Notes under the pieces: generated by a model
The model's input: the letters and a program-made list of their open reading frames with translations, nothing else
Told to the model about the DNA's origin: nothing
Databases searched by the model: none
Shown: positions 10,648-55,226 of the stretch, one piece after another
How the letters are laid out: the number at the start of each line of letters is the position of its first letter
How positions within the stretch are numbered: the first letter of the stretch is position 1
Position numbers and translations under genes: made by a program
DNA from: Candidatus Anammoxibacter sp.
GTDB lineage: Bacteria; Planctomycetota; Brocadiia; Brocadiales; Anammoxibacteraceae
Length of the DNA stretch: 64,000 nt
Direction of reading: 5' to 3'
Assembly: GCA_021777105.1 (NCBI GenBank)
Contig: JAIQZQ010000001.1
Location: forward strand, 49,067 to 113,066

Positions 10648-11955
10648 TTAGCGTTGGAAAACCTTAGCTCCAGGATAAGTAGCGTTTCCGGCTAGTTTTT
10701 CATTTATCCTTAATAGCTGATTATATTTTGCGACCCTGTCGGATCTAGCCATGCTGCCTGTTTTTATCTGACCTGCATTGCACCCAACAGCCAGATCAGC
10801 TATTGTGGTGTCTTCGGTCTCGCCCGATCTGTGAGAAATTACCGCGGTGTATTTATTCTTTTTAGCCAACTTTATGGTGTCAATTGATTCGGTCAGGCTG
10901 CCTATCTGGTTTACTTTAACAAGTATTGAATTGGCGATGCCGTTGTCAATGCCTTCCTGCAGTATTTTCATGTTTGTCACAAATAGGTCGTCGCCTACTA
11001 ATTGAACGCTGCTTCCAAGTTTATCGGTTAAAAGTTTCCACCCCTCCTTGTCGTCCTCAGCCATGCCGTCTTCAATAGACTTGATGGGGAACTCGCTAAC
11101 AAGCGCCGCGTATATATCCACCATCTCCGCTGAAGTAAACTTTTCCGATGCCATTACATAAGAGCCGTCTTTATAAAATTCGCTTGAAGCCGGATCCAAA
11201 GCTATGGCCACATCCTCTCCCGGAGTGTATTCGGCCTGCTCAATAGCGTAGGTTATTAATTTAAGGGCTTGCCTTATAATAGAGACGGCGCCTTTGCCGG
11301 ACTTCATCATCGGGGCAAAACCGCCTTCATCGCCAATACCAACGGCGACGTTGTTGCTTATCCTGGGAACTATTTTATTCAGGCTTTGAAAAATATTCGA
11401 GGCCATCACCATTGCCGACTGAAAACTGTTTGGCCCGATAGGTATAATCATGAACTCCTGAAAATCTATATTATTGTCCGCGTGTTCTCCGCCGTTTAAC
11501 ACATTCATCATAGGCACGGGCAAAACAGTGGGGGTCGCGCCGTAGAGATTAGAGATATGCTCATACAGAGGTATCTTTTGATCCTGCGCCGCGGCCTTTG
11601 CGACAGCCAACGACACGCCTAGGATTGCGTTTGCTCCAAGTTGATGCTTGTCGTCAGTGCCGTCAAGCTCAATCATTTTGTTGTCAATCCCTTCCTGATC
11701 GGAAGCTTCCATGGAAACCACGCCGGGTTTTATTGTCTTTTTTATATTTGCAACCGCGTTTTGAACTCCTTTGCCGAGGTACCTTTTTGAATCCCCATCT
11801 CTTAGCTCAAGGGCCTCCCTCGTTCCGGTTGAAGCGCCGGAAGGGACAGCGGCTGTGCCGACAATCCCATTGCTTAAAACAACGTCCACTTCGACAGTAG
11901 GGTTTCCTCTGGAGTCTAAAATTTCTCTAGCGTTTATAGATTTGATTTTGCTCAT
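10648..11955 (-). CDS. eno: Enolase
   Basis: [25 protein letters not shown] loop, [46 protein letters not shown] and GQIKTG are all present. Confidence 0.95.
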
Positions 11956-12005
11956 ATCTGCCTTTTAACGGGCATGGCCCGGTTATAAAAATTTGCGTGA
12001 TTTTT

Positions 12006-13370
12006 TTAAAAAGAAAATGTATTTTTTGGGTGAAAGACTGCGTTGTTCCCAAGCGCCTCTTCAATGCGCAACAATTGATTGTGTTTAGCTAAACGTTCAG
12101 TTCTTGAAAACCCGCCGGAATGTATCAAATCAATATTGCAGCCAATCGTAATGTCCGCGACAACAGGGTCTTCGGTGTCGCCGATTCCGCTTCGAATCAA
12201 ACTTCTCAATCTATGGTTTTCGCTAAAATTTACCACTTTCAGCAATTCGCTCAGTGTGGGGACACGATCTGTTGATATAACAACATTATTCATAACTCCG
12301 TCACGAATCATTTTTTCCTTGTCTTTCCCCTCGCCAAAGGCAACGTCGTAGCCGGCCACTTGGATTTTTTCTCCAAAATTGCCTGTTAAACCTTGCCAGC
12401 CGCTTGGATCGTCTTCGGCAAAGCAGTTTTCCATAAACACAATAGGGTATTTTTTAGCGATATTTTCATAAAACCGCTGGAGTTCCTTTCTTGATATCTC
12501 TATCTCTTTCTGCTCTGAGTCCGTGAAACAATATCGCGTGCGCTCACTGTAAAATCCGCTGTCGGCGTTGACATTAATTCCAATAAGAATATCCTGACCC
12601 GCTTTGTATCCCGCCAGAGTAATGCTCTTAACAACAATCTCTAAAGCTTCGATTGTGATGGAATCCCAATTACCCACATTTGTGTCTTCGTGAGAGCAAA
12701 ATACCGGCGCATAACCGCCTTGATCGCCTACGGAAGCGCTCATCCCTTTATCGTGCAAAATCTTTTTAGCGGAGTGAAAGACCTCTGCGCCCATCCTTAA
12801 GGCGTCTTTAAAACTAGCGGCTTTAACCGGGGCAACCATTATTGATTGAAAATTCAGATTGTTGTTTGTAAAAATGCCGCCGTCAAAAATATTGATCAAC
12901 GGTATAGGCATCTGATACGTCCTTCTCTTACCGAAAAGGCTTCTGATGTGCTCGTATAAGCTTTTGTCATTGTTCAAAGCTCCGGCTTTTGCGACTGCGC
13001 ATGAAATTGCAAATGTCGTATTAATGATCGAGTTAAACAAATCCTTTTTCCCATTTAAAACAAGCATTTCATAATCTATGCCTTCCTGATTATTAATGTT
13101 CATTGATTTAATCTCAGGAATTAACAACTCGTTTACCTTTTCAATCGCGGCTCCGATCGCTTTATTATAATAGTCCCGCATAGGCTCCAACGAGACAACC
13201 TTGCCAAAGGAGTTGGTGTCGTAATACCTCTGTTGCTCTTTAATATTAAAAGTTTTTGGAGCCGAGGCATTTGTGCATATGCCGTTATCTAACAGCACTT
13301 CCGCTTCAATAGTTGGGTTGCTGGTCGAATCATAAATTTTTCTAAGTATAATCTTTTCTATATTTGCCAT
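12006..13370 (-). CDS. Enolase-fold paralog lacking most catalytic residues (pseudo-enolase)
   Basis: Colinear with the adjacent eno (N-terminus IYDSTSNPTIEAEV, C-terminus RTERLAKHNQLLRIEEALG), but the catalytic or metal motifs are replaced. See finding. Confidence 0.8.
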   Translation of the reverse strand: MANIEKIILRKIYDSTSNPTIEAEVLLDNGICTNASAPKTFNIKEQQRYYDTNSFGKVVSLEPMRDYYNKAIGAAIEKVNELLIPEIKSMNINNQEGIDYEMLVLNGKKDLFNSIINTTFAISCAVAKAGALNNDKSLYEHIRSLFGKRRTYQMPIPLINIFDGGIFTNNNLNFQSIMVAPVKAASFKDALRMGAEVFHSAKKILHDKGMSASVGDQGGYAPVFCSHEDTNVGNWDSITIEALEIVVKSITLAGYKAGQDILIGINVNADSGFYSERTRYCFTDSEQKEIEISRKELQRFYENIAKKYPIVFMENCFAEDDPSGWQGLTGNFGEKIQVAGYDVAFGEGKDKEKMIRDGVMNNVVISTDRVPTLSELLKVVNFSENHRLRSLIRSGIGDTEDPVVADITIGCNIDLIHSGGFSRTERLAKHNQLLRIEEALGNNAVFHPKNTFSF

Positions 13371-21616: not shown

Positions 21617-21957
21617 CTAAATTACCCGTATTTCAAATGTAATGAAAAATTATACTTACAGCGCCCAGCCGTTACAAGTCTAAAACGTTTTGCCACAGAG
21701 CCTTAAGTTTGCCCTGAACAAGCCATAAGTATATCAATACCGGCCACGCTTTTCAAACATATAAGGCAACTATTCATATCGTTTAAGCATATTGTTTTAA
21801 AATGATGAAAAAAGGCCTTAAAGGCGCAGTAACCATGAATCTTGAAGGACTACAAAAGCAAAAGGAAGGAAATCACAGGGCTTATCTTAACGGACCGGGC
21901 AAAAACAGCAATTTTGGTCAACCCTAACCCGGAGAAACCGGCAATTAGTCATTAAAG

Positions 21958-21997
21958 GCTGGAGCAGTCTTGCAGACTGATTCTAAACGTTTTTGCG
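21958..21997 (+). repeat. Hairpin + AAACGTTTT repeat family, copy 1
   Basis: gcagtcttgcagactgattctaaacgtttttgcg. Relatives at 25826-25861, 34954-34986 (reverse) and 63191-63232. Confidence 0.55.
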
Positions 21998-22170
21998 TTG
22001 CGATCTAATGAAACTTTAAATATCTTGTCAAATGTTTATATCCACTTTTAACAACCATGTCCTAACCAGCTCATATCCCGATTCAGTTGAAAAGAAAAAT
22101 ACAGATAATCTTGGCTCTACATTTATTTTCTCGATATGCCAATTGAGACACATCCAGTCAAGCAATATTT

Positions 22171-25533: not shown

Positions 25534-25825
25534 AATGGACACACCTCCCATGAGCAAGCATCCCCCCTTCGCGCCATCACTACAAGACCTTACATTAATT
25601 GTCGCCATCTATAACCAACGTATTAATTACTCACGGATTACAGCATCAAAATATTTGTTTTTAATCATTTATTTCACACCGTAAAGCTTTTTATAATAGC
25701 CTGTCATTTTTATCACGCATATTTTATTCAAGTTTTTTTCTAGACAATAGACAAACAAAGCGCTAAATTTAAACACAAAATTATTTAAAATCCACAAACA
25801 AAAAGCAGATTACACAGATTAAAAG

Positions 25826-25861
25826 CTGAATCAGTCCTGCAGACTGATTCAAAACGTTTTT
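25826..25861 (+). repeat. Hairpin + AAACGTTTT repeat family, copy 2
   Basis: gaatcagtc-ctgca-gactgattc (9-bp stem) followed by aaaacgttttt. Confidence 0.55.
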
Positions 25862-26073
25862 GATTGACTATTACAATTGACCTTAAAACAAAATTTTGAG
25901 CATAAAAATTTATATTTTTTGTAAAAATCAAGGTAAAACCGCAAGCATTTCCTGAAATTATTATGTTTTTTGCAGGAACATCTTGATTAACAAGGATCAG
26001 ATTAAATTTAGAATTAATTTCTAGAGGAATGTTCAAAACAAAAATTCCATGAGCAAAGGGTATGAAAAGTTTA

Positions 26074-29406: not shown

Positions 29407-29647
29407 GGGCAAGCCTAGGGTCAGATATTAACAGGGCGAAGCTCAGGGTCACATCTTAACAGGGTGTCCGAGAATAGGAGCCGTATTGAATCAGGCGCTA
29501 TATATGGTAAAAATATAAAAAAGAAAACATTTACATACAATTTACAAATTTGGTTTTCGAAACGAAAAGAAGAAATAGACTGAATATCAAAAAATAATAT
29601 TCTATACAATAAGGCTTCTATATATTTAAAGAAAGGTCTAAATAAAT

Positions 29648-32128
29648 ATGAGCGTATTTATAAGTTACAGTCATGACTCAGATGAACATATGAAAAATGT
29701 TTTAGATATTGCAAATCGGCTTCGTTCTGATTATGTAGATTGTGAGTTAGATCAGTATATTGAAAACCCTCCGGAAGGATGGCCTAAATGGATGGACACA
29801 CAAATTAAAAAAGCTATGTATGTTATTGTTGTATGCACAAAGCCATATAATTATAAATTTTCTGCAAACGATCAGGAAAGTATAGGAAAAGGCATTAAGT
29901 GGGAAAGTAGAATATCATATCAACACATTTATGATTTAGGATCTAATAATTATAAATTCATACCTGTAGTATTTTCTAAATCAGATATAGATTATGTGCT
30001 TACGCCTTTAAAAGGAAATACTGTATACCTAATCCCTAATGAATATGAGAAACTCCTACGTCGCCTTTCAGGAAAACCTTCAGTTGAAAAGCCAAACCTT
30101 GGTTTTTCATCAAAAAAAAATCTTTTTTTGACAAAAGATCAGGATTCAAATGTCGCAACAGAAATTGATATGATAGATATAGAATTAGTGATAAAAGAAG
30201 ATTTTGCAAACTTTTCACATGAAAAGGGAAAAGCTTTACTAAACGCCATTAAAGTTTTTCTTGATGCAGATTATGATATAAAAATAAAGAAAAAGCGGGA
30301 AGGCAGCACTTTATTAACTTTAGGATTACAACCAGAAGATGCCGAAAAGCTTTTGTGGGCAGCAAAATCAGGATATTTTGATAACCTTAATGTAGTTGAT
30401 GCAAATATGGTAGAGGTAGAAGCAGGAATGCCTACAAAACTATCAGAATTTAATGTTAAAACAGTTGAAAAAGAAATAAATGAATTCTTTAAAAAACATA
30501 TTGAACAAAAACCACCTAGGAACGAAACGGAAAGATTATTATGCAGTCTTTGGTCGCAAATACTGAAGACTGAAGTCTCCAGTATATTAAGCGATTTCTA
30601 TAAAGTTGGCGGTAATTCAGTATTAGCTATTAAACTAGTTTCTCTCATCCGTAATCGCTTCGGAATTGAAATGCCACTAAGGACATTTTTCGAAAGAACT
30701 ATTTTGTTAGAACAAGCAGAATGGCTTGATAAGCAACCTCCTAGCGCAAAATTGCCACCAGCCGAACCTTTCGTTAATGGTGTGCCATCTGTTTTGTCTT
30801 TTGCTCAACAAAGATTGTTATTCCTAATACAATTGAAAGGGCAAAATGCCGCTTATAATATGCCAATGGCTTTTTATTTACAAGGCCATCTCAATGAAAA
30901 AGCTTTACAGAATGCTTTATCCATTTTAATTAAACGCCACGATAGTTTACGGCTTTGTTTTCCTATTGTTAATGGAGTCACAAAGGCCCAGTTCAAAAAC
31001 GTTTATAACCCACTTACCGTAATTGATCTAAGCGGGTTACCGAAACAGAAACAACAACAACAAGTTACGGAATTGTTAACTAATCACGCCCATGCTTTAT
31101 TTGACTTAAATACTGGCCCTTTACTGAGTGTACAACTTATCAAACTTGGCTGTAAAGATCAGATTTTGTTGTTGAACATACATCAAATTATAAGCGATGA
31201 CTGGTCTACAAGGGTTTTGATTCGAGAATGTAGTCAATTATACAATATTTATGAACAAAATCAGACACCAGAAACGCCAAAACTGTCAGCCAAATATACT
31301 GATTACGTAGTTTGTCAGAGAGATTTGCTACAAGGAGCAGTCGTAAGGAATCAGATAACTTATTGGAAAGGTAAACTCGCTGGCGCATTGGAATTATTAG
31401 AATTACATTCAGATTATCCACGCCCGCCTGTAACGAGCTACCAAGGCAAACATTTGCAGAGTGTTTTAAGTACAGAAATAACACAGGGGCTTAACAGCTT
31501 AAGCAAAAGCCGTAACGTTACATCATTTATGACGTTACTTACGACTTTTAATGTTTTACTATATCGTTACAGTGGACAAACGGACATGCTTGTGGGCAGT
31601 CCTGTTGCGAATAGAACGCTTTGCCAAACCAAGGATTTAGTTGGATTTTTCTCCAATACGTTAATATTGCGAACACAAATTAAAAAAAACCAAACGTTTG
31701 CAAAGTTACTAACACAAGTAAAAAATACAGTTCTTGAGGCGTACAATAACCAGGAAATCCCTTTTGAATATTTGATAGAACAAGTAAAACCTTTTTGGAG
31801 GCTGAAACATGCACCATTGTTTCAGGTTATGTTTATATTATTAGATACACCTAGGGAAACGTTAAAATTTAACAGAATGAAAGTGTCTTTTTTGGAAGCC
31901 GAAAATATTATGACAAAATCTGACTTAACCTTAAAGGCATCTGAACACGAGGGAGTCTTTGTTTGTGATTGGGAATACAACTCGGAATTGTTCCGTGATG
32001 AAACTATCAATCAAATGGTCAAATATTTTCAGGTTTTATTAGAATGGATTCTTAATAATCCTGAACATTCGCTTTCTAAACTACCTTTATTAGAACAAAC
32101 CGAGAGTCAACAGTTAAAAGACTTTTAA
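29648..32128 (+). CDS. SEFIR/TIR-like domain + NRPS-type carrier (T) + condensation (C) domain protein, 826 aa
   Basis: N-terminus VFISYSHDSDEH...YVIVVCTKPY. Carrier FYKVGGNSVLAIKL. C-domain motifs LSFAQQRL, RHDSLRLCF, IHQIISDDWS, YTDYVV, VGFFSNTLILR and NQEIPFE. Markedly AT-rich (about 28-36% GC in sampled stretches). Confidence 0.8.
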   Translation: MSVFISYSHDSDEHMKNVLDIANRLRSDYVDCELDQYIENPPEGWPKWMDTQIKKAMYVIVVCTKPYNYKFSANDQESIGKGIKWESRISYQHIYDLGSNNYKFIPVVFSKSDIDYVLTPLKGNTVYLIPNEYEKLLRRLSGKPSVEKPNLGFSSKKNLFLTKDQDSNVATEIDMIDIELVIKEDFANFSHEKGKALLNAIKVFLDADYDIKIKKKREGSTLLTLGLQPEDAEKLLWAAKSGYFDNLNVVDANMVEVEAGMPTKLSEFNVKTVEKEINEFFKKHIEQKPPRNETERLLCSLWSQILKTEVSSILSDFYKVGGNSVLAIKLVSLIRNRFGIEMPLRTFFERTILLEQAEWLDKQPPSAKLPPAEPFVNGVPSVLSFAQQRLLFLIQLKGQNAAYNMPMAFYLQGHLNEKALQNALSILIKRHDSLRLCFPIVNGVTKAQFKNVYNPLTVIDLSGLPKQKQQQQVTELLTNHAHALFDLNTGPLLSVQLIKLGCKDQILLLNIHQIISDDWSTRVLIRECSQLYNIYEQNQTPETPKLSAKYTDYVVCQRDLLQGAVVRNQITYWKGKLAGALELLELHSDYPRPPVTSYQGKHLQSVLSTEITQGLNSLSKSRNVTSFMTLLTTFNVLLYRYSGQTDMLVGSPVANRTLCQTKDLVGFFSNTLILRTQIKKNQTFAKLLTQVKNTVLEAYNNQEIPFEYLIEQVKPFWRLKHAPLFQVMFILLDTPRETLKFNRMKVSFLEAENIMTKSDLTLKASEHEGVFVCDWEYNSELFRDETINQMVKYFQVLLEWILNNPEHSLSKLPLLEQTESQQLKDF

Positions 32129-32579: not shown

Positions 32580-33864
32580 AAAATAAGGGACAGGTTTATT
32601 TTTATGGCAATATTTGAATAAATTATGTATAATTCGCGCGTTAGAGATTTTTGGGGTTAGTTTTTCTTAACTATCTGATTTTGTGAGGGTTAAAATGGCA
32701 AGGATACCACGATTGATGCTTAAAAGCGAAGAGGGGATATATCATGTTATGTCGCGTACAGCTCTGGAGGGGTTTGTTTTAGGGGATGTCGAGAAAGATT
32801 ATTTGTTTGGCTTGATTAAGCGATTTAGCGGGATATTTTTTGCGGAAATTTTTGGGTATTGTATTATGGGCAATCATTTTCATCTGTTGGTTAAGATGGG
32901 GCAGTCTGATGATTATACTGATGATGAGATAAAAATGCGCATAGGCCGATATAATAGCGATAAGGACAAGGTTGTGACTAATGGGGAAGTCCCCTATTTT
33001 CGCGACAAATTCTCTAATCTGTCTGAATTTATGCGCGAGATAAAACAGAGGTTTTCACGTTTTTACAATAAACGGCATGAAAGGAGAGGCTATTTCTGGG
33101 GAGACAGGTTTAAAAGCGTTATTGTTGAAAAAGGGGATACTTTGATAAATTTGCTTGCGTATATTGATTTGAACCCTTTAAGGGCAGGGTTGGCAAGTCG
33201 GCCCGAGAATTACAGGTGGTGTTCGATAGGTTATCATGCGCAGACGGGCAATCGGGACGGTTTGCTTTCAACTAATTTTGGATTGATTGATTATGAAGCG
33301 ATGTCTGAACAGGAGAGATTGACGGACTACAGGGAGTTTTTGTATGAAAAAGGGGCAATTGAACCTGAAAAAGGGGCGACTATAAATGAAACTATAATGA
33401 AAACCGAACGCGCGGGCAAGTACAAGTTAACGGAGATAGACCGATTTAGATACAAAACGAGATATTTTACAGACAGTGGCATAATCGGCACAAAAGCTTT
33501 TGTTCGCCGTCACTTTGAGCATTTTAAAGATCATTTCAACACGAAGAAAACAAAAATCCCAAAAGAGGTAACCGGCTGCAAGGACATTTATTCGCTTAAA
33601 AATTTATCAAGCTGATTCATTAAATGCTTAATCTCAAATCCTCTACGATCAGCTATGTGCATCTTGTAAACCTGCCACATTACAATCCATTTTCCCTTCT
33701 TATATCCGACAATTATCAATTCTCCTCGTAAATGCATCATGTATATTTTCCCTTGAGCAGTCAAAATACACCAACAAAAAGCGCTACATCAATTTTTTGA
33801 AAATTATCTCACAAAACGAAAGAAATTGTTAATTTAGCTATAAAATAAACCTGCCCCCTATTTT
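32580..33864 (+). mobile_element. REPtron/IS200-like unit: Y1 transposase gene flanked by inverted hairpin repeats
   Basis: Left aaaataagggacaggtttattttta (32580-32604) versus the reverse complement of right aaaataaacctgccccctatttt (33842-33864), about 24/30 matching. Each arm is itself a small hairpin (aaaataa...ttatttt). Confidence 0.5.
32695..33615 (+). CDS. IS200/IS605-family Y1 (HUH) transposase, RayT-like
   Basis: MARIPR...GIYHVMSRT, HUH motif GNHFHLLV, AYIDLNPLRAGL and ENYRWCS. ATG at 32695 is preferred over the GTG at 32683. Confidence 0.8.
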   Translation: MARIPRLMLKSEEGIYHVMSRTALEGFVLGDVEKDYLFGLIKRFSGIFFAEIFGYCIMGNHFHLLVKMGQSDDYTDDEIKMRIGRYNSDKDKVVTNGEVPYFRDKFSNLSEFMREIKQRFSRFYNKRHERRGYFWGDRFKSVIVEKGDTLINLLAYIDLNPLRAGLASRPENYRWCSIGYHAQTGNRDGLLSTNFGLIDYEAMSEQERLTDYREFLYEKGAIEPEKGATINETIMKTERAGKYKLTEIDRFRYKTRYFTDSGIIGTKAFVRRHFEHFKDHFNTKKTKIPKEVTGCKDIYSLKNLSS

Positions 33865-34899: not shown

Positions 34900-34953
34900 G
34901 CCGGGAAAACCAAAGGACTGGTCTTAATTATTACGAATTGTAATCCCAAAGCA

Positions 34954-34986
34954 AAAACGTTTTGAAGCAGTCGACAAGACTGATCC
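34954..34986 (-). repeat. Hairpin + AAACGTTTT repeat family, copy 3 (reverse orientation)
   Basis: aaaacgttttgaagcagtcgacaagactgatcc. Confidence 0.5.
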
Positions 34987-35073
34987 AGATTTTAATTTTG
35001 TTTTTTCACTTTTAATCAATGTAATCTGTGGTTAATGAGCTTTTCCGGGTTATCCGGGTTAGGAATAATAAAC

Positions 35074-35611: not shown

Positions 35612-35947
35612 GGCTAAAGCCCATAGGTGTTAGGTTAAGATTTAAATATACGCCGCCTGTAAATGATTAAATCGCCCTTTCAGGGCTGATATTGCATATT
35701 ATATTCAAACCCAGGGCGTTGCCCTGGGCTATATTAACCCCGCCCTTTCAGGGCTACCTACGTTTTAACGTATTGATAAAAAAATATACAATTTCAAGCC
35801 CCAACGGTGCGGCTTTAATATAGCCTGGGGCATCGCCCCAGGTATTAAATGTTATTTTAATTTAGCCTTGAAAGGGCGATTTAAGCTCTTACGCTCTGTT
35901 TCTGATGTTTGGAGCTAAAGCTTAACCTAACACCTATGGGCTAAAGC
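35612..35947. repeat. ~335-bp nested imperfect palindrome (MITE-like or structured RNA)
   Basis: Outer arms are agcccataggtgttaggttaag (35618-35639) and cttaacctaacacctatgggct (35921-35942). Middle arms are aaatcgccctttcagggct (35669-35687) and agccttgaaagggcgattt (35864-35882). Inner hairpins are cccagggcgttgccctggg and cctggggcatcgccccagg. Confidence 0.65.
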
Positions 35948-36254: not shown

Positions 36255-36824
36255 ATGGCTCTCAAGGCTGAAAAGATCAAAATAATGATAAGGGAACTGG
36301 AAGAGGTCGCCCTTAAAATCCTTGCGGACCTTGTGGCGTATCAGATTAAAACAGGGCCTTATAACAAAAGCCCGGGCGAAAACTATATAGCCGCCGAGAA
36401 TTCCACCGCCGAATACGTTGCCGAAAACTTTGAGAACATAAAGGAGTTTAAAGAGCACATGGAAAAACAGGGCAAAGGAATTGAAGCTATTCAGGCCCTG
36501 GCAAAGAAGATATACGATAACTACTTTACAGGCCGGATGAATTTTACCGAGGTTAAAAACAAGATTAGCGCTAAAAAAGATATAACTTTAAAGGCCATCA
36601 CGGATATGGTGGCCTACAAGATATCGCAAAGCAGCGATGATAAAGGCCCTGAGATAAACTATCTGGTTGCGGAAACGTTTGTGGCCCAATATATTTCAAA
36701 GAATTTTAAGAATATGGAAGCGTTTAAATCAATGATAAAGACTTTGGACAACAGCATAAAGGGGATTGAAGCTTTCTCTGACCTGATTTACGGCAAATAT
36801 TGCCAGGCTCAAAACGCAAGGTAA
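36255..36824 (+). CDS. Hypothetical protein with an internal ~90-aa duplication
   Basis: DLVAYQIKTGPYNKSPGENYIAAE...NFENIKEFKEHM...GIEAIQALAKKIYDNY versus DMVAYKISQSSDDKGPEINYLVAE...NFKNMEAFKSMI...GIEAFSDLIYGKY. Confidence 0.45.
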   Translation: MALKAEKIKIMIRELEEVALKILADLVAYQIKTGPYNKSPGENYIAAENSTAEYVAENFENIKEFKEHMEKQGKGIEAIQALAKKIYDNYFTGRMNFTEVKNKISAKKDITLKAITDMVAYKISQSSDDKGPEINYLVAETFVAQYISKNFKNMEAFKSMIKTLDNSIKGIEAFSDLIYGKYCQAQNAR

Positions 36825-36919: not shown

Positions 36920-38326
36920 ATGAAACTGCTATTTGTCCATATAAAAGGGAGCAAAAAGGGACATTCCGAAGTGTTCGATAAGGAGAAGATCGCAATCGGG
37001 TCCGACCCTTCATGCTGCGTAATATTTGACAAGGGCGAGGAGGCTCAAGTGGAGCCTTTTCACGCCGAGGTCAGTTGCGAGGACGGCAAATATAATATAC
37101 GCAACCTCTCCGCCGGGCATAACACATATGTAAACAACGAGCCTGTTGAAAGCATAGCGCTAAACGACGGAGACGTTGTTGTTTTCGGCGAAAACGGGCC
37201 GGAAGTATGCGTGAGGTTTTCCGACTCTAAAAAATTGCCGGCATCTCTAAAAGTCGTCGCCGGCATGCTTGACTCTATGGAGGTTTCCAATGAAACAACG
37301 GAAAAACTAAAAGAAGAGGTCATGGAGATAAAACATTCCAGACCCGAAGCGCCTATTGATATAAACCTCTTTAAATACCTTGTTTGGCTTCCATTTAAAC
37401 AATCATCAAAAAAGGTCAAGTTTTATGTAGCCCTGTCAACCATTCTAATAATAAGCGTATTGTCATTGGCGGGATATTTCTATTTCTTTGAACTGAAAAA
37501 GACTACCAAAAGGGTCTTAAAACTTGAGACGCAGCAGACCGTTACTGAAGATTTCATTGAAACATACCGAAAAAGCGTCTGTTTTATCCAGGGAAGTTAC
37601 TACCTTGCCAGCAAAAAGACGGGCAATCCATTAAGGACGGGCAGAGACGGCAAACCTTTTATGCGCGATTTTACCGGATCCGGATTCCTATCTGATAAAA
37701 CAGGCATAATTATAACGAACAGGCATGTGGCCGACCCTGTCTGGCAAGCCGGCGCGCATCTATACAACAAGGAAAGCGGGCGGGACGGCCCCGGCGTGGA
37801 GGCAAGGTTTGCGGAGTTAAGAGCTTTTTTCCCGGGGATAAAAGGACCGTTTCCGCTTGAAATTGTAAAAATGTCGAAACACGCTGATATAGCTGTTTTA
37901 AAAATAAAATCCGGTTCCGTAACATTGCCGCCGTTTAACTTTGACCGGTCCGGCAAAGAGGCGAGAATTGGCGAGCCGGTTATACTTTTGGGCTATCCCG
38001 CCGGTATAAACGCCATTTTCGGCAAAAGCGATCAGGAAACCATAAACGAGCTGATTAAACTCCCGGTTTTGGAAATAGCCGAAGAGCTTTCAAACCGCAA
38101 TCTGATAACGCCTATCATAACCCAGGGGCACATTACCGACATCTCGCCGGGCAAGATCATATACGACGCTCAAACCACTTTCGGCGGAAGCGGCGGCCCG
38201 CTAATTAACTCAAAAGGCGAGGTTATAGGAATAAATTACGGAATCCTCAGAGAATTTAAAGGCTCCAATTTCGCCGTGCCCATTAAATACGGCATAGAGC
38301 TTTTGGATGAAAGCGCGGAGCGCTAG
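36920..38326 (+). CDS. FHA domain - TM helix - trypsin-like (S1/DegP-type) serine protease
   Basis: FHA: IAIGSDPSC...FHAEV...RNLSAGHNTYVNNEPV. TM: FYVALSTILIISVLSLAGYFYFF. Protease triad context: TNRHVA, DIAVLKI, GGSGGPLIN. Confidence 0.8.
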   Translation: MKLLFVHIKGSKKGHSEVFDKEKIAIGSDPSCCVIFDKGEEAQVEPFHAEVSCEDGKYNIRNLSAGHNTYVNNEPVESIALNDGDVVVFGENGPEVCVRFSDSKKLPASLKVVAGMLDSMEVSNETTEKLKEEVMEIKHSRPEAPIDINLFKYLVWLPFKQSSKKVKFYVALSTILIISVLSLAGYFYFFELKKTTKRVLKLETQQTVTEDFIETYRKSVCFIQGSYYLASKKTGNPLRTGRDGKPFMRDFTGSGFLSDKTGIIITNRHVADPVWQAGAHLYNKESGRDGPGVEARFAELRAFFPGIKGPFPLEIVKMSKHADIAVLKIKSGSVTLPPFNFDRSGKEARIGEPVILLGYPAGINAIFGKSDQETINELIKLPVLEIAEELSNRNLITPIITQGHITDISPGKIIYDAQTTFGGSGGPLINSKGEVIGINYGILREFKGSNFAVPIKYGIELLDESAER

Positions 38327-38928: not shown

Positions 38929-39561
38929 CTATTCATAACTAATGCCGGGATAAAGTATTGTCATGCAGTCTGGGCATATGCTGTGTGTGAAATCGGCTTC
39001 TGAACGCTCGCTGATGTATGTCTCAATAGGCGCCCAGGATTCCCGTTGTTTTGGATCGCAGTCCTTTGACCGTATTTTTTTGCAGTTTGCGCAAATAGGG
39101 AGCAGGCCTTTTAGCGTCTTTATCTCATTTAACGCGGTTTGCAGTTCGCTGTTAAGCTGTTTTTGCCTGTTTAGATTGTCCTTGAGCTTTAAATGGGTTT
39201 CGATTCTGGCTTTTAAAAGAGAGGGCGATAATGGTTTTGTAATGTAGTCAACCGCGCCAAGGGCGAGCCCTTTTTTCTCGTCGTCTACTTCATCCATAGC
39301 GGTAACAAATATTATGGGGATGTCCGTTGCAGGCTCATGGGCCTTTATTCTTTGGCAAACCTCGTAACCATCCATATCAGGCATCATTATATCAAGCAAA
39401 ACAAGGTCAGGCGGGTTTTCAGACATTACCCTTTTAAGGGCCTGTTCGCCGTTTTTAGCGACTACGGTTTTGTAATCGCCTTTTAACAAATCAACAAGCA
39501 CGTTTATGTTTAAGGCTTCGTCATCAACTATTAATATTTTTTGTTTGTCGTCGGTTGTCAT
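38929..39561 (-). CDS. Response regulator (REC) with a C-terminal Cys4 domain
   Basis: REC: ILIVDDEALN...LVLLDIMMPDMDGYEV...TAMDE...KP. Tail: LKGLLPICANCKKIR...W..IETYISERSEADFTHSICPDC. Confidence 0.85.
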   Translation of the reverse strand: MTTDDKQKILIVDDEALNINVLVDLLKGDYKTVVAKNGEQALKRVMSENPPDLVLLDIMMPDMDGYEVCQRIKAHEPATDIPIIFVTAMDEVDDEKKGLALGAVDYITKPLSPSLLKARIETHLKLKDNLNRQKQLNSELQTALNEIKTLKGLLPICANCKKIRSKDCDPKQRESWAPIETYISERSEADFTHSICPDCMTILYPGISYE

Positions 39562-39847
39562 TTTTTAACTCCTCAACGATTGTAACTATTCAGCGTGATT
39601 ATTGCACAATGCCTGGCTTACATTGACAAATATGCATTAATCATCAATGTAAGCCTGGAGTGGATGGAGTAATGGAATGTTGACAATAAATGAAATACGA
39701 TTGTCATCGCCCCAGTACTCCAAAGCTCCAATACTCCACGCTGCCCATTGCGCCTTATTGATATTTAAAATTATTTTCGTACTTTATGTTCAAACATGCT
39801 GAATAGTTACCAACGATTAATAAATAATTTGCGCGGTTTTTATATGA

Positions 39848-39870
39848 TCACAGGCAAGGATGCCTGTGCC
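39848..39870. repeat. cacaggca-agga-tgcctgtg hairpin repeat
   Basis: 8-bp stem. Two more copies form an inverted pair at 52353-52406. Confidence 0.5.
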
Positions 39871-39892
39871 ACTGATTTCTAATTTCTAATTT

Positions 39893-40537
39893 TTACTTCC
39901 CGGCTCGTTCCGGTAATTTTACTCCAGGGTATAGCCTGCCGGCGCAGGCGGGGCATACGCTGTGTGTAAACTTTGTGTCTGAATGATCGCTGATATACGT
40001 CTCTATTGATGTCCATGATTTTTGATCACGGGGATCGCCTTCCTGCGATCTTATTTTTTTGCAACTTGCGCAGATGGGGAGAAGGCCCTTTAACGTCTTG
40101 ATCTCGTTTAACGCGGTTTGCAACTCATTGTTTAGCTCTTTTTGTTCGCACAGATTATCCTTTAGTTTCAGGTGCGTCCGGATTCTGGCTTTTACAACAG
40201 GGGGTGAAAATGGTTTTGTGATAAAATCGACCCCTCCGATCTCAAATCCTTTTGTTTCGTCTTCAACTTTATTAAGGGCAGTGACAAATATGACAGGTAT
40301 ATCCGCCGTGGCGCTATCAGCCTTTAATTGCCTGCAAACTTCAATGCCGTCCATAACCGGCATGAGGATGTCCAGCAATATAATGTCCGGCGGCGTTTCG
40401 GCCCGGGCTCTTTTCAAAGCCTGTTCTCCGCTTTTGGCGACAATCAACTTATAATTATCCCCAAGCAAAACCGCCAGCAGATCAATGCTTGTGGGGTCGT
40501 CGTCAACCACAAGAACTCTTGGTTTGTTATTTGTCAT
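39893..40537 (-). CDS. Response regulator (REC) with a C-terminal Cys4 domain, paralog of 38929-39561
   Basis: Same architecture. The tail LKGLLPICASCKKIRSQEGDP..WTSIETYISDHSDTKFTHSVCPAC is nearly identical to its neighbour. Confidence 0.85.
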   Translation of the reverse strand: MTNNKPRVLVVDDDPTSIDLLAVLLGDNYKLIVAKSGEQALKRARAETPPDIILLDILMPVMDGIEVCRQLKADSATADIPVIFVTALNKVEDETKGFEIGGVDFITKPFSPPVVKARIRTHLKLKDNLCEQKELNNELQTALNEIKTLKGLLPICASCKKIRSQEGDPRDQKSWTSIETYISDHSDTKFTHSVCPACAGRLYPGVKLPERAGK

Positions 40538-40668: not shown

Positions 40669-43600
40669 TTATTTTTTATCAACCCCTAAAGTCGCAAAGA
40701 TTCCAGGCATAGCCTCAACTGCTTCGTCAAAATCGTAATCTTCAATTTTGCGTTTTATAAACTCCATTGTTTCATATAATTTAGAGCCGGCAAGCTCATT
40801 CATAATTAATGACGTCTGTTCAATGGCGTCTGAATCGCCGTCCCGAAGCATAGCTTCCAGTTTGACAAAAAGAGGCTCAAGTTTTTTAACATTAACGGCG
40901 TTAACCGAGGCGGGTTTATTTGGAGACTCTTTTTTCATTGCGTCTTCGGCGGCCTTTGTCTCATTTATAGATTTAACAACAGGATCAATCTCGTTTTGAA
41001 AACCTTTAATGTATTTTTCGTAGTTTTCAGCGTCCCTCTTTTTTATGCACGATTCCAGATTAGAGGCTGCAATATAGACCTTGTCGGCTCCTATAGTTCC
41101 GGCGACTCCTTTAATTGTATGCGCCAGCATTTGGGCTTTTTCAGTGTCATTGTTTTTTAAAGCGGTTTTTATCCTGTCGGGCGAGCCTTCAAAGTCTCTT
41201 CCAAACGTGACGGTTATTTTCTTGTAGAGTTTTACATTGCCCATTAACCTTTTAATGCCGTGTTCCGTATCAATGCCCTTAATGCTTTGCAAAAACGTTT
41301 TTTCACAGCCTGACGCCGCGCCGGTTTCTGTTGGGGCGGGCATTGCCGCCGGTTCGTTTTTTGACCATGTTTTTAGAGCTTCGTATAGTTTGTTTGGATT
41401 GATTGGTTTGGATATATAGTCGTCCATGCCGGCGTCAAGGCATTTTTGTTTATCGCCCGTCATTGCGTTGGCGGTCATGGCAATAATAGGGAGATTTTTA
41501 AACCGCTCTTCCTCTCTAATAAGTTTGGTTGCCTGGTAACCGTCCATCTCCTGCATCTGAATATCCATAAACACCATATCAAAATCATGGTTCGCCACGC
41601 TGTCCAACGCCTCCTTGCCGGTGCTTGCGGTTGACACCTCTACCCCATAACTCTCAAGCAGTTCGCGGGCAACCTGTTGATTTATTGAGTTGTCTTCAAC
41701 GAGCAGGACGTGGGAACCGGAAACATTGGCAAAAGTTGCCTTCTCTTTTTCAATGGATTTCTTTTTATCATTAACAATATATGCATGCCCCAATGCGGTG
41801 AAAATGTTGTCTAAAAGCCTGGACGAATTGACGGGTTTGGCCAAAAAACCGTCAACCACATCTCGCGCGTCTTCGTTTGAGGCAAAATCGGCGCCGTATG
41901 CCGTTACCATGATTATTGAAGGTATGTGCGACAATTTAGTGTTCTCTTTAATAATCTTGGCGGTTTCTATGCCTGTAAGGCCGGGCATCTTCCAATCCAT
42001 AAGGACAATGTTATATGGATTAACCGCGTTAGGGCCGTTGTTTTGTTCAATCTCTTTTAACGCCTTTTCGCCTGAATTTACAGGCACGGCGGAGAGGGAC
42101 AGCGACTCCAGCGTTTTCGTCATAAACTCGCGAGCGGTATTGCTGTCATCCACAACCAGCGCCTTTACATCGCGCGGCTCTGGAAACAGGTCAAAGATCG
42201 TCCTGTGCGTTGCTTTGCGATACCCAAATTCCGCGGTAAATATAAAAGAGCTACCTTTGCCGGGCTCGCTTTCAACCCAAATGTCGCCGTTCATCAACTC
42301 TACCAATCTTTTACATATGGCAAGCCCAAGGCCGGTGCCGCCGTACTTTCTGGTAGTTGAGGCGTCGGCTTGCTCAAAGGGGCGAAACAGTCCCTCTGAC
42401 TGCTCTTTGTTAAGGCCGATGCCCGTGTCTTTAACTGAAAATTTAAGGCGCGCGGCTCCGGATGCTTTATCGTCAAGTTCGGTGACGATAACTACCTCGC
42501 CTTTTTCAGTAAATTTAAGGGCGTTGCTCACAAGGTTTATAAGCACCTGGCCTAAACGCAACTGGTCGCCGACTAAAGCGTTGGGGCACTCAATTGAAGT
42601 AAAGAACAGAAACTCAACGCCTTTGTCTTCCGCCTTTTTGCCGAACATGCCGGTTAAATTATCAAGAACGTCATCAAGGAAGAATTCCGTATTCTCAATA
42701 TTCAGCTTGCCGGCCTCAATTTTTGAGAAATCAAGGATGTCGTTTATAATCACAAGCAAAGACTGGCATGATGAGTTGATCTTGTTTAAATAGTCCTTTT
42801 GCTTATCGTTTAACCCGGTCTGAAGGGCGAGGTGTGTTAGGCCTAAAATAGCGTTCATCGGCGTCCGTATCTCATGGCTCATATTGGCCAGGAAATTGCT
42901 TTTGAATTCGTTCGCTTTAACTGCCTGCTCCTTAGCTATCACAAGCTCTTGTTCAGTCTTTTTTCTCTCTGTAATATCGCGTATCACGCCGACGCTGCCA
43001 AGGAATTTAGAGTCTTCATTCTTTTCATTTACTTCATACATGCCGGCGCTGTTAACTTCGGCGGGCAAAAGCTTGCCGTTTTCAGAGGCATTATCGCATT
43101 CATCCGTGGCTTCAGGGGCTTTATGCCTGATCATGACTTCCAGCCCTTCTGTTTTACGCTCACCGCTTCTGCGCTCATCGAATAGTTTCAGGAAATCGTC
43201 ATCAGCGCTCTTTTGGTTTTTAAAAGCAGGCAACGCGGTGTTCAGGCTTACTTTATCAACCTGCGCGGGAGAGAGGATTGAGCTGAAATGTTTATCTATC
43301 AAATCTTCCGGTTTGTACCCGAAATGTGAAACGCTGTGATTCAGGAACAGGAAATTGCCGTTTTCATCAACATGGTAAATAATGTCAGGCACGGTTTGAA
43401 CCAATGTCTGAAATTTTAGCTGCGACGCCTTGAACTGTTTAGCCAGTTGCTCAAGGTCGGCGTTGGATTTGACAAGCGCGTTCTGCATCTCCAGCATTGA
43501 CTTGTTTTTTCTGATGGCGTTTTCATAAATCGACAACAAAAAGTTTAGAATTTGCCTGGCGTTTGAGTTTAGGAGATATGTCTCATTGTCCAGACTCAAT

Positions 43601-44004
43601 TTCATGGAATCTCCGTCTGATTGGGGCGTGTCGCCGGTTGACTCTGAAAGCGTTTTAGATACCGTGTGGAGTATTTCGTCCTCGGTAAAAGGCTTGATGA
43701 TGTAGTTGTCGGCTTGGCAGCCGAGCCCGACAACTATGTCTTTTAATTCTGCAAGATCGGATAGCAGGATAACCGGGATATGGCCGTATTCAGGAGAGTT
43801 CTTTAGTTTTGCGCACATCTCGTAGCCGCCCATCTCAGGCATGTGTATATCTGTTATTACCAGAGCGGGCTCTTTTTCGTAAACAACATTAAGCCCCTCC
43901 TTGCCGTCGTGGGCAACCAGCACAACGTGTCCCGCGCGTTCCAGAATGTCTTTTATATAAAATTGCTGAGTTCTGCTGTCTTCGGCTACAAGTATTGTTG
44001 ACAT
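40669..44004 (-). CDS. Hybrid sensor histidine kinase (REC-PAS-HisKA-HATPase-REC-REC-HPt)
   Basis: H-box MSHEIRTPMNAILG, G-box GTGLGLAICKRL, three receiver domains (DIHMPEMGG, MDWKMPGLTG, MDIQMQEMDG), HPt AHTIKGVAGTIGA. Confidence 0.9.
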   Translation of the reverse strand: MSTILVAEDSRTQQFYIKDILERAGHVVLVAHDGKEGLNVVYEKEPALVITDIHMPEMGGYEMCAKLKNSPEYGHIPVILLSDLAELKDIVVGLGCQADNYIIKPFTEDEILHTVSKTLSESTGDTPQSDGDSMKLSLDNETYLLNSNARQILNFLLSIYENAIRKNKSMLEMQNALVKSNADLEQLAKQFKASQLKFQTLVQTVPDIIYHVDENGNFLFLNHSVSHFGYKPEDLIDKHFSSILSPAQVDKVSLNTALPAFKNQKSADDDFLKLFDERRSGERKTEGLEVMIRHKAPEATDECDNASENGKLLPAEVNSAGMYEVNEKNEDSKFLGSVGVIRDITERKKTEQELVIAKEQAVKANEFKSNFLANMSHEIRTPMNAILGLTHLALQTGLNDKQKDYLNKINSSCQSLLVIINDILDFSKIEAGKLNIENTEFFLDDVLDNLTGMFGKKAEDKGVEFLFFTSIECPNALVGDQLRLGQVLINLVSNALKFTEKGEVVIVTELDDKASGAARLKFSVKDTGIGLNKEQSEGLFRPFEQADASTTRKYGGTGLGLAICKRLVELMNGDIWVESEPGKGSSFIFTAEFGYRKATHRTIFDLFPEPRDVKALVVDDSNTAREFMTKTLESLSLSAVPVNSGEKALKEIEQNNGPNAVNPYNIVLMDWKMPGLTGIETAKIIKENTKLSHIPSIIMVTAYGADFASNEDARDVVDGFLAKPVNSSRLLDNIFTALGHAYIVNDKKKSIEKEKATFANVSGSHVLLVEDNSINQQVARELLESYGVEVSTASTGKEALDSVANHDFDMVFMDIQMQEMDGYQATKLIREEERFKNLPIIAMTANAMTGDKQKCLDAGMDDYISKPINPNKLYEALKTWSKNEPAAMPAPTETGAASGCEKTFLQSIKGIDTEHGIKRLMGNVKLYKKITVTFGRDFEGSPDRIKTALKNNDTEKAQMLAHTIKGVAGTIGADKVYIAASNLESCIKKRDAENYEKYIKGFQNEIDPVVKSINETKAAEDAMKKESPNKPASVNAVNVKKLEPLFVKLEAMLRDGDSDAIEQTSLIMNELAGSKLYETMEFIKRKIEDYDFDEAVEAMPGIFATLGVDKK

Positions 44005-52446: not shown

Positions 52447-52490
52447 AAATCTGAATGCGATTTGGGACATTTTATTTCTTCCACGTTCCT
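52447..52490 (+). repeat. Solo copy of the right arm of the 49937-50119 element, just upstream of cas6
   Basis: aaatctgaatgcgatttgggacattttatttcttccacgttcct versus 50077-50119, about 38/43 identical. Confidence 0.6.
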
Positions 52491-52529
52491 AAAGATAAAA
52501 ACATTATCCCCGGAAAGGATAATGTTGGA

Positions 52530-53495
52530 ATGGTTTTGAATATGCTTAAAAATTTCAGATTTGCAAAATTCAGGTTTATTTTAACGGCGGATGAAGATAT
52601 ATCGCTGCCGGCTTATAAAGGCGCTGTTTTAAGGGGCGGTTTTGGATATGTCTTTAAAAAAATGGTTTGCGCGCAACAGTTTGCCGATTCCTGCTCAAAA
52701 TGCATGTTGCGCAACAATTGCGCCTATGCTTACATATTTGAGACGCCACTGCCGGCAGACGCCCAAAAGCTCCGCTCATATAACGCCATACCCCATCCGT
52801 TTGTAATTGAGCCGCCTAATGACACCGTGCGTATTGTGCGTAAAGGCTTTGACACTGAGTTTAATCTCGCGCTAATAGGCAATGCCGTCGATTATTTGCC
52901 ATATTTTGTCATTACTTTTATTGAACTCGGCAAAAAAGGGTTAGGGCGAAACAAGAGCAGGTATATTTTGAAAGATGTTCAAAGCCTGGATATGGCCGGC
53001 AAGGCCATATCCATATTTAACAGCGCATCCGGCGCTCTGGCCGGCGACTTTACCGTTTTAACCGGAGACATGTTTGAGTCCACGGATAAAGGGAGCGCTG
53101 ATGATCAGATCAGTCTGGAGTTTTTAACGCAATGCCGCATTAAATTTAACGAAAAATTTACCTGTAACATTGAATTTCATATCCTTATCAGAAACATGCT
53201 TCGCCGTTTGTCTACCCTTTCCCTATTCCATTGCGGCAATGAGCTTGAATACGATTATAAAGAGCTAATCGAAAAAGCAAACAGCGTTAAAACCATAAAG
53301 AATTCACTGCAATGGCGCGATTGGGAACGGTACTCAACCAGGCAAAAACAGAAAATGGCCCTTGGAGGCGCAATAGGAAGCATAACATACCAGGGCGATC
53401 TTGCCCCTTTTTTGACTCTCCTTAAATTAGGCGAATATATCCATGTAGGCAAAGGCACAAGTTTCGGCCTGGGAAAGTATGTTATTAATCAATAG
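52530..53495 (+). CDS. cas6: Cas6-family CRISPR endoribonuclease (RAMP)
   Basis: FRFILTADEDISLPAYKGAVLRGGFGYVFKKMVC...C.KC.L...CAYAYIFETP, plus the C-terminal glycine-rich loop HVGKGTSFGLGKY. Start moved to ATG 52530 (ggaaagga RBS) because 52455-52529 is repeat DNA. ATG 52542 is also possible. Confidence 0.75.
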   Translation: MVLNMLKNFRFAKFRFILTADEDISLPAYKGAVLRGGFGYVFKKMVCAQQFADSCSKCMLRNNCAYAYIFETPLPADAQKLRSYNAIPHPFVIEPPNDTVRIVRKGFDTEFNLALIGNAVDYLPYFVITFIELGKKGLGRNKSRYILKDVQSLDMAGKAISIFNSASGALAGDFTVLTGDMFESTDKGSADDQISLEFLTQCRIKFNEKFTCNIEFHILIRNMLRRLSTLSLFHCGNELEYDYKELIEKANSVKTIKNSLQWRDWERYSTRQKQKMALGGAIGSITYQGDLAPFLTLLKLGEYIHVGKGTSFGLGKYVINQ

Positions 53496-53680
53496 CTCCC
53501 TCTTTTAAAGCATCGTATAATGTATCCACTTATCCTGTAAAATCCCAATATATTAGAGTTCCCAAAAACCAGCGCAAATGGCGGATCAATCATGCTGGTT
53601 GATCCAAAATGACAAAAATATATTGCGTAGCCCCTAACCCGGATAACGGGAAAAATAAAAAGGTCGAACAATATTGAATC

Positions 53681-53860
53681 GTAACCAAACTCCTGTTTGG
53701 TTACGCAATTGCCCGAGAAACTCCGGTTTCTCGTTTAGCTTGCCGGCATGATACACGAAACTGGAGTTTCTCCCCTCAGGGGATAATTCTCACTAAGGTA
53801 GCCAAGCGGCTAAGTGTTCATTTATCGGGCAATTACGTTCCAAAATCGGAGTTTTGGAAC
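53681..53860. repeat. Composite hairpin cluster / candidate structured RNA between cas6 and the CARF gene
   Basis: Hairpins at 53681-53704, 53714-53733, 53757-53770 and 53837-53860, the 53-nt repeat at 53772-53824, and a long-range pairing of gcaattgcccg (53705-53715) with cgggcaatta (53826-53835). Confidence 0.55.
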
Positions 53861-55202: not shown

Positions 55203-55226
55203 TTTGCATCCACGGGAGAAGGGTTT

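Follow-up and report, generated by a model that had tools for sequence, protein, structure and literature searches.

A SEFIR effector domain fused to a carrier–condensation didomain of nonribosomal peptide synthetase origin in Candidatus Anammoxibacter

Results

The DNA analysed here (the window) is a stretch of 64,000 nucleotides from Candidatus Anammoxibacter sp. (assembly GCA_021777105.1, contig JAIQZQ010000001.1, positions 49,067 to 113,066), and it contains a gene in which a SEFIR domain, a TRADD-N-like domain and a carrier–condensation (T–C) didomain of the kind found in nonribosomal peptide synthetases (NRPSs) are joined in one reading frame. The list of open reading frames (ORFs) and the translation give a single ATG-initiated gene for a protein of 826 amino acids (Table 1), which we call the SEFIR–T–C protein. 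Pfam places a SEFIR domain at residues 2–140 (E = 4e-14, stronger than the match to TIR_2 at E = 9e-9), a PP-binding carrier domain at residues 297–358 (E = 2e-10) and a Condensation domain at residues 383–823 (E = 6e-93), the last covering profile positions 7–455 of 456. A sequence-only reading of this DNA had proposed these three domains with an adaptor module between them. The profile searches, including the SEFIR match at the N terminus, bear out the three assignments, and the adaptor proved right in kind (see below). The motif positions quoted in that reading (KWES at residue 84, GGNS at residues 321–324 and the condensation motifs C1–C6) likewise agree with the translation.

An independent Logan assembly of run SRR15505515 contains an identical 2,868-bp contig that spans the whole gene. 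Because the domain E-values lie far below chance and the same contig was assembled independently, the gene is not a chance product, and the second assembly also shows that it is not an assembly artefact. We confirm the fusion of SEFIR, TRADD-N-like and carrier–condensation parts as real and unusual, and as a one-off so far. The Logan contig is identical to the window and so supplied no polymorphism from which dN/dS could be estimated. The AT-rich intergenic region upstream carries a purine-rich stretch just 5' of the start codon (Table 1), and the gene probably has expression signals of its own; promoter and terminator scans gave no enrichment over shuffled sequences.

Table 1 Coordinates of the SEFIR–T–C gene, its parts and other genes of the window (positions within the window).
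Feature	Position	Strand	Basis
Whole gene: SEFIR / TRADD-N-like / carrier (T) / condensation (C)	29648..32128	+	Pfam, PADLOC, translation
Upstream intergenic region, AT-rich; purine-rich stretch AAAGAAAGG ~12 nt 5' of ATG	29407..29647	+	Direct reading
SEFIR (TIR-like) effector domain, aa 2–150	29651..30097	+	Pfam, PADLOC, PDB search, AF2/Foldseek
Asp35 codon, invariant in SEFIR clade	29750..29752	+	36-sequence alignment, PDB alignment
Glu86 codon (K-W-E-S)	29903..29905	+	Invariant in 36 aligned homologues
Middle domain, aa 176–254, β-α-β-β-α-β	30173..30409	+	Homology to P0121/P0228, AF2
Ser220 codon, β2–β3 turn (E-G-S)	30305..30307	+	Invariant in 3 sequences; model strands
Start of NRPS-derived part: end of A–T linker, carrier (T/PCP, Pfam aa 297–358), T–C linker	30503..30793	+	tblastn, Pfam, alignment
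Ser324 codon, predicted phosphopantetheine-attachment Ser in GGNS	30617..30619	+	Motif, alignment
Condensation domain, aa 383–823, full length, from elongation-type C domain	30794..32116	+	Pfam, homology
C3 motif HQIISDD in place of HHxxxDG	31181..31201	+	Alignment
IS200/RAYT-like Y1 transposase gene	32683-33615		Pfam Y1_Tnp, E = 7e-10
Pkinase–HD–HD_assoc_2 protein (Ser/Thr kinase + HD phosphohydrolase), 925 aa	26629-29406	+	Pfam
FHA domain + trypsin-like protease, hydrophobic segment between	36920-38326	+	
Type III CRISPR-Cas locus: Cas6 52455-53495; Cas10/Cmr2-palm 55227-56855; RAMPs 59105-63101	52455-63101	+	

The N-terminal domain falls in the clade of bSEFIR, an experimentally validated single-gene defence system in which an N-terminal SEFIR domain depletes NAD+, splitting it into ADP-ribose (ADPR) plus nicotinamide (bSEFIR preprint). 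Against the PADLOC bSEFIR model (PDLC03957; Bacillus sp. NIO-1130), the whole protein scores 162 bits (E = 1e-47), of which residues 1–151 alone account for 156.7 (E = 4e-46). A phmmer search of the Protein Data Bank (PDB) matched the prokaryotic SEFIR structures 5y8e/5y8f and Act1. We modelled residues 1–290 with AlphaFold2 (AF2) from a 36-sequence alignment; the mean predicted local distance difference test score (pLDDT) was 84, exceeding 90 over most of the SEFIR domain. The best Foldseek matches of the SEFIR model were 9ot1 (Act1, IL-17R SEFIR) and 5y8e, followed by TIR-APAZ and AbTir-type NADases. The bSEFIR family is delimited by an N-terminal SEFIR match that is stronger than the TIR match (bSEFIR preprint), and both the Pfam scores and the leading Foldseek matches of our protein follow this pattern.

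Two acidic residues shared with bSEFIR are candidates for functional sites. Asp35 aligns with the aspartate of VILDRW in the Bacillus cereus SEFIR structure and would be equivalent to D40 of bSEFIR, where the D40A mutation abolished defence (bSEFIR preprint). Glu86 aligns with the glutamate of GVGTETMI in 5y8e and begins a helix (residues 84–100) in the model, which makes it, by analogy with TIR NADases, the candidate catalytic glutamate. The SEFIR–T–C protein may be an NADase with a role in defence.

Beyond the SEFIR domain, which is 40–54% identical to that of family members of ~360 amino acids, the resemblance to bSEFIR ends. Most SEFIR relatives are of that length and carry a family-specific C-terminal domain; in our protein this part of ~200 amino acids (profile positions 191–412) is replaced by the TRADD-N-like, carrier and condensation domains, none of which gave a PADLOC match. 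The true match to the whole-protein profile accordingly spans only positions 40–191 of 412, whereas the homologue P0122 covers positions 40–380. Because the family C terminus is absent, the SEFIR–T–C protein is not a canonical bSEFIR; it shares the SEFIR head and, like bSEFIR, is a single gene within a defence island. The C termini of the clade are varied, with NACHT, AAA_16, FGE-sulfatase, DUF4384 and TRADD-like_N domains in the Pfam lists of the N-terminal search matches. The SEFIR clade is thus a promiscuous effector head, and since it carries so many different C-terminal domains, a swapped-in module at this position is a family habit.

Only two relatives, the SEFIR–TRADD-N proteins P0121 and P0228, share the segment that follows (residues ~175–255; 41–44% and 34% identity, respectively). 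P0121 matches the Pfam family TRADD-like_N (PF20694) with 27.6 bits against a cut-off of 23.7. Both AF2 models have the strand order β-α-β-β-α-β at a pLDDT of 84–94, and the modelled middle domain of our protein has an RRM/ACT-like fold. Gly219 and Ser220 are invariant in the three sequences, and modelled strands at residues 212–216 and 222–227 flank Ser220, placing it in the β2–β3 turn in which the hallmark serine of the TRADD-N superfamily resides (PMC7159879, PMC8195603). Bacterial TRADD-N proteins consist of an N-terminal effector (TIR or others), a TRADD-N domain and a highly variable C-terminal region (Kaur et al., PMC8195603); in our protein, a single copy of the middle domain lies between the N-terminal SEFIR domain and the C-terminal T–C didomain.

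From these sequence and model data, we regard the middle domain as a probable TRADD-N domain of the bacterial kind and the protein as a probable member of the TRADD-N class; its architecture would then fit the scheme of an effector, a TRADD-N bridge and a variable C-terminal sensor. The guess of a conflict-system adaptor at residues 170–255 thus held up in kind, through the TRADD-like_N match of P0121, the RRM/ACT-like fold and the turn serine. The likeness to described TRADD-N proteins (Kaur et al. 2020, 2021; PF20694) extends to the order of parts, a TIR-superfamily effector at the N terminus, an RRM-like middle domain and the serine in the turn. The differences are that our middle domain scores below the Pfam threshold and that the C termini described so far are repeats, STAND NTPases, caspases, PAS, GUN4, HTH and Death-like domains. 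Condensation domains or other NRPS parts are not mentioned in the descriptions of bacterial TRADD-N proteins by Kaur et al. (PMC7159879, PMC8195603).

NRPS homology begins at residue 286 (nt 30503), within the linker between the adenylation (A) and carrier domains of the relatives, and continues up to the stop codon. The stop codon falls in the C–A linker, where our protein ends LPLLEQTESQQLKDF* and P0002 continues as ...LPLLTVAEQQLLQAWNRTE.... By homology, the T–C didomain is cut at the A–T and C–A linkers from a canonical elongation module. Its closest relatives, 52–58% identical, are internal modules of ordinary multi-module NRPS lines; P0003 is a piece of one such line, and the loci L085–L087 are similar. 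A representative-library search with the full protein again led to multi-module lines (nearest 54–55% identical), and its top 150 matches, swamped by giant NRPSs with additive scores, are uninformative on relatives of the same architecture. Among solved structures, 5u89 and the TycC peptidyl carrier protein (PCP)–C didomain 2jgp come closest. NRPS PCP–C didomains of known structure (TycC PCP5–C6, 2jgp; 5u89; fuscachelin PCP2–C3, 7kvw) share full-length homology with our T–C (E = 1e-57 to 1e-87), as well as an identical domain order and identical linker positions. Unlike them, our didomain stands outside an assembly line, is fused to immune domains, carries HQxxxDD at the active site, has lost further conserved residues and evolves faster.

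The sequence-only reading had found no other NRPS part in the window, and our searches concur. With four multi-domain NRPS relatives as queries, tblastn over the window returned nt 30503–32125 as the sole region. Pfam scans of most long ORFs (those of <130 amino acids outside the low-GC island described below were left out) revealed no A, thioesterase, polyketide synthase or phosphopantetheinyl transferase (PPTase) domain in the 64 kb, so that adenylation and release functions are both missing from the window. As far as these 64 kb of the 113-kb contig show, the SEFIR–T–C protein is not part of an NRPS line. A truncated NRPS gene and an insertion into a bSEFIR gene were considered as origins and rejected, since in six frames neither A-domain remnants nor a displaced SEFIR C terminus was found.

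The carrier matches PF00550 with its GGxS serine in place, and Ser324 is the predicted phosphopantetheinylation site. The sequence GGNS occurs in 34 of the 918 carrier domains of the homologue set (3.7%), within the natural range; the five nearest relatives all read GGHSL. In the condensation domain, all C1–C7 motifs are recognisable in the alignment, among them C1 LSFAQQRL (residue 383), C2 RHDSLRL (430), C4 YTDYVV (550), C5 VGFFSNTLILR (665) and C6 NQEIPFE (701). The C3 motif departs from the HHxxxDG expected of NRPS C domains (PF00668), as the sequence-only reading had recognised. It reads IHQIISDDWS (residue 511), with Gln513 in place of the second histidine and Asp518 in place of the glycine, whereas the five nearest relatives all have (M/I)HHII(S/G)DGWS. 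Among 951 C-type domains of the homologue set, the second position is histidine in 98.4% and glutamine in four (0.4%), our protein included.

Substitutions in the didomain reach well beyond C3. Nine NRPS homologues share 95 invariant columns, 18 of which are substituted in our protein, including W391L (C1), H513Q, G522R, A554V and W556C (C4), E662K, D703E (C6), R717W (C7 region) and F758S; retention is thus 81%, compared with 91–100% for canonical homologues in leave-one-out comparisons. Tajima relative-rate tests assign 56–84 lineage-specific changes to our T–C and 25–37 to its sisters (p = 1e-2 to 2e-7), and sister–sister controls were not significant at p < 0.05. The didomain evolves ~2–3 times faster than its sisters, with the excess spread uniformly over the carrier and the N- and C-lobes of the condensation domain. 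The frame of 541 T–C codons is nevertheless open. Of all single-base changes, 5.8% would create a stop codon, and the probability that none would arise is ~0.03 for 45 neutral replacements, indels uncounted. Many of the replacements are conservative in the alignment. The T–C looks repurposed rather than catalytically conserved, and its open frame, clean domain boundaries and conservative replacements make it look still maintained; as judged from the alignment, its condensation domain follows a constraint pattern that differs from that of assembly-line C domains.

The X-domain of glycopeptide NRPSs is a C-like, non-catalytic platform that recruits P450 enzymes. It resembles our condensation domain in joining a degenerate HHxxxDG motif to a conserved fold, kept in its case as a protein-binding scaffold, and is a precedent for non-catalytic reuse. 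Judged by its nearest relatives and its setting, our domain is not itself an X-domain: its nearest relatives are canonical HHxxxDG C domains, the window holds no P450 gene and no other NRPS gene, and the X-domain is an old, separate subfamily within assembly lines whereas ours arose recently from a canonical C domain.

Searches of 5.8 billion protein clusters, 241 million metagenome contigs and also viral contigs, plasmid and phage sequences found no second protein combining SEFIR and T–C; they were word-indexed or pattern-limited and could miss distant relatives. In the full-length search, SEFIR and Condensation were combined only in the window protein, among the matches listed; in the N-terminal search, PF00668 or PF00550 occurred in 0 of the 120 matches listed. 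All 55 loci of a metagenome scan were either SEFIR-only or T–C-only. The protein forms a 90% cluster by itself and, at 50%, is its own representative. A search with the junction (residues 160–380) returned nothing, even for known T-domain relatives, which reflects the limit of the word index and is not evidence of absence. The claim of an undescribed use of NRPS parts is consistent with the proteins, metagenomes, viruses, plasmids and phages searched and with the TRADD-N literature (Kaur et al.).

The gene is also set apart by its composition. G+C content at third codon positions (GC3) is 0.20–0.31, compared with 0.47–0.57 for genes of the host and 0.47 for the neighbouring kinase–HD gene, and the whole SEFIR–T–C gene is compositionally foreign. 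GC3 is 0.21 in the SEFIR half and 0.31 in the T–C half, and 0.48 in the sister gene P0003. Because the T–C half has drifted so far from its sister toward the SEFIR half, the sequence suggests that the fusion was long resident in an AT-rich donor and later moved here, a history that speaks against a very recent local accident.

A low-GC island of ~13 kb, with hisS on one side and signalling genes on the other, surrounds the gene. The island also holds repeat-separated toxin–antitoxin cassettes (DUF5678, FitA/VapB–PIN and HicAB), the kinase–HD gene, the transposase gene, DUF433 and the FHA–trypsin protease. The Pfam scans of most long ORFs of the window found only housekeeping, signalling, defence and CRISPR genes. 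Between positions 22173 and 25553, direct repeats of 50–150 nt, up to 94–95% identical and spaced ~1.03–1.13 kb apart, separate small cassettes (DUF5678 with split retropepsin-like ORFs, FitA/VapB–PIN and HicA–HicB) in the manner of a cassette array; no integrase was seen in the window. A further repeat of 54–61 nt (82–89% identical) occurs just after hisS (21951–22004), before the kinase–HD gene (25818–25878, direct) and past the DUF433 and ferredoxin-like genes (34936–34996, inverted). Its copies enclose the low-GC island and possibly mark the limits of a mobile element or of recombination. Downstream, the IS200/RAYT-like transposase gene lies 555 nt past the SEFIR–T–C stop codon and is flanked by 23-nt inverted repeats (32580–32602 and 33842–33864).

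The kinase–HD protein encoded upstream has partial PADLOC matches to MkoA, mad6, PD-T4-6 and dGTPase and could be a defence gene on its own. Like the FHA–trypsin protein, it forms a singleton cluster, and the genome scan yielded no close relatives of it. The link between the kinase–HD and SEFIR–T–C genes suspected in the sequence-only reading found no support: the kinase–HD gene differs in GC3 and is absent next to P0121 and at 57 related SEFIR loci, and we rejected it as a partner gene.

Other features of the island and the window are recorded here. The protease part of the FHA–trypsin protein resembles the PADLOC RT-Protease_XI protease, and a 189-residue, internally repeated protein is encoded just upstream (36255–36824). 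Three nested inverted-repeat pairs with arms of 29–52 nt, 73–91% complementary, form a palindromic non-coding block of ~335 nt (35613–35947) for which there was no Rfam match; Rfam and tRNA scans of the whole window likewise found nothing. Two tandem enolase paralogues, one far more divergent, occupy 10648–13370 on the reverse strand. Also on that strand, two paralogous response regulators (38929–40537) bear Cys-rich C-terminal tails, …LLPICA(N/S)CKKIRS…C(P)xC, and are adjoined by a large hybrid histidine kinase gene (40669–44004). In the collection of species-representative genomes the organism lacks a close relative, its AspRS reaching no more than 58–60% identity, with MAGs of Desulfobacteraceae, Planctomycetota and Brocadiia.

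Discussion

We tentatively propose, at somewhat less than even confidence, that the SEFIR–T–C protein is a one-protein abortive-infection NADase built on the plan of effector, TRADD-N and variable module, in which the T–C didomain acts as a sensor or regulator and not as a peptide-bond enzyme. The protein would be a single-polypeptide anti-phage conflict protein whose bSEFIR-clade effector, on oligomerisation, would cleave NAD+ to ADPR and nicotinamide. TRADD-N domains have been proposed to keep both flanking parts in an inactive state until either detects a signal (Kaur et al., PMC8195603), and the TRADD-N-like domain would similarly hold the effector and the C-terminal module in the off state. 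The PCP–C didomain would fill the position taken by sensor, repeat or ligand-binding domains in other family members and serve as a sensory or regulatory scaffold for a ligand or protein, possibly by way of its substrate tunnel and carrier arm. Binding there would rearrange the TRADD-N interface and so free the NADase. The low-GC island counts in favour of this proposal: it contains toxin–antitoxin cassettes and further genes resembling defence genes, and a type III CRISPR-Cas locus lies close by.

Several observations weigh against it. The TRADD-N assignment is transitive, made through P0121: the middle segment of our protein gives no TRADD-like_N match in Pfam at E up to 1, and Foldseek of the isolated domain returns only generic RRM/ACT folds and no TRADD structures, with the U1A RRM and the aspartate-kinase ACT domain at probabilities of 0.9–0.98 and E > 0.02. 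Part of the acceleration of the T–C is compositional, given that F, Y, M, I, N and K residues make up 27% of it (18–20% in relatives) and its GC3 has fallen well below that of the P0003 gene. GGNS with its serine is a normal carrier motif, and loss of the second histidine, by analogy with characterised C domains, would be no proof of lost catalysis (PMC11546977). No trigger, ligand or partner was identified. Finally, the architecture was found in this genome only, and therefore selection on the fusion as such cannot be shown.

This last point also bears on an evolutionary accident, which we consider unlikely but weighty enough to set out. Recombination, possibly linked to a mobile element, would have joined a SEFIR–TRADD-N gene to an NRPS fragment and left the T–C as a functionless passenger; either the original sensor was replaced, with an inert or deregulated protein as the result, or the T–C is merely tolerated, and the gene would be decaying. 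Such an event would agree with the singleton cluster and the failure to find relatives of the same architecture, with the transposase gene close downstream in a repeat-rich island, with accelerated evolution and with the loss of conserved catalytic-motif residues. Against it stand the frame, intact across 541 AT-rich codons, and junctions that lie exactly at the A–T and C–A linkers, with no remnant of an A domain or a displaced SEFIR C terminus in the window. The retention of 81% of invariant fold positions, together with many conservative replacements, also argues for upkeep, and the drift of T–C GC3 toward the SEFIR half suggests a long-standing fusion in an AT-rich donor.

A catalytic T–C is less likely still. 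The carrier would be phosphopantetheinylated and loaded in trans, and the HQxxxDD condensation domain would pass an acyl or aminoacyl group on to some soluble acceptor such as an NAD-derived nucleotide made by the SEFIR domain, with a conjugate acting as signal or toxin as the outcome. ADPR conjugates are within the repertoire of TIR-family enzymes, as with the His-ADPR of type II Thoeris. The retained Ser324, in a motif shared with 3.7% of ordinary carriers, the seven recognisable C motifs and the near-complete coverage of the Pfam condensation profile (positions 7–455 of 456) would all suit an enzyme. Mutation of the second histidine does not always abolish the activity of C domains, and the streptothricin ORF18 C domain, with HQxxxDM, is active with a free amine acceptor (PMC11546977); because an HQxxxDM domain is known to be active, the T–C may still be capable of catalysis. 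The comparison with ORF18, drawn by motif alone, extends to glutamine at the second histidine and amide formation with a soluble amine, and it breaks down in that ORF18 belongs to a biosynthetic cluster that has adenylation enzymes of its own. Here, no adenylation, acyl-CoA ligase or PPTase gene is found in the 64 kb. Near-universal C-domain residues other than the histidine have been lost (W556, E662, R717, F758 and G522), the uniform acceleration spares neither the donor nor the acceptor side, characterised bSEFIR acts by NAD+ depletion and not by signalling, and we found no related systems with such chemistry. The transfer onto an NAD-derived nucleotide put forward in the sequence-only reading thus found no direct support, given the absent loading enzyme, the faster evolution and the lost C-domain residues. 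Lastly, a chimeric join in the metagenome-assembled contig is highly improbable: the lineage is apparently uncultured or poorly represented (its best AspRS match is 58–60% identical) and such contigs can be chimeric, but an identical contig across the whole gene was assembled independently, the reading frame is kept across the join, which falls at domain boundaries, and the AT-rich composition runs on over the junction.

A bolder and doubtful proposition is that the PCP–C didomain is a working immune part, whether as an enzyme or as a sensor. As an enzyme, it would esterify or amidate the NAD-derived SEFIR product with a carrier-bound acyl or aminoacyl group and so make conjugate signals or toxins of a new class. 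As a sensor, it would use its phosphopantetheine arm and substrate tunnel to report the cellular status of CoA, acyl-thioesters or PPTase, or to capture a factor from phage, thereby controlling the NADase. If true, either would be without precedent as a use of NRPS machinery within an immune effector protein.

Surprising as the combination is, it is known from one occurrence; with one gene and 826 amino acids, the construct is small and directly testable. Should the T–C prove a mere passenger, the gene would be a record of domain shuffling at the C terminus of SEFIR effectors, caught in progress. Should the T–C be catalytic, thiotemplate chemistry would be linked to NAD-derived immune nucleotides. 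If the fusion is functional, it would join the glycopeptide X-domain as a second case in which a condensation fold has been retained for a purpose beyond chain elongation, and a carrier joined to a condensation-fold domain as the sensing or regulatory end would widen the known set of immune sensors. It would then follow that modular immune proteins of the effector, TRADD-N and sensor type can recruit parts of secondary metabolism.

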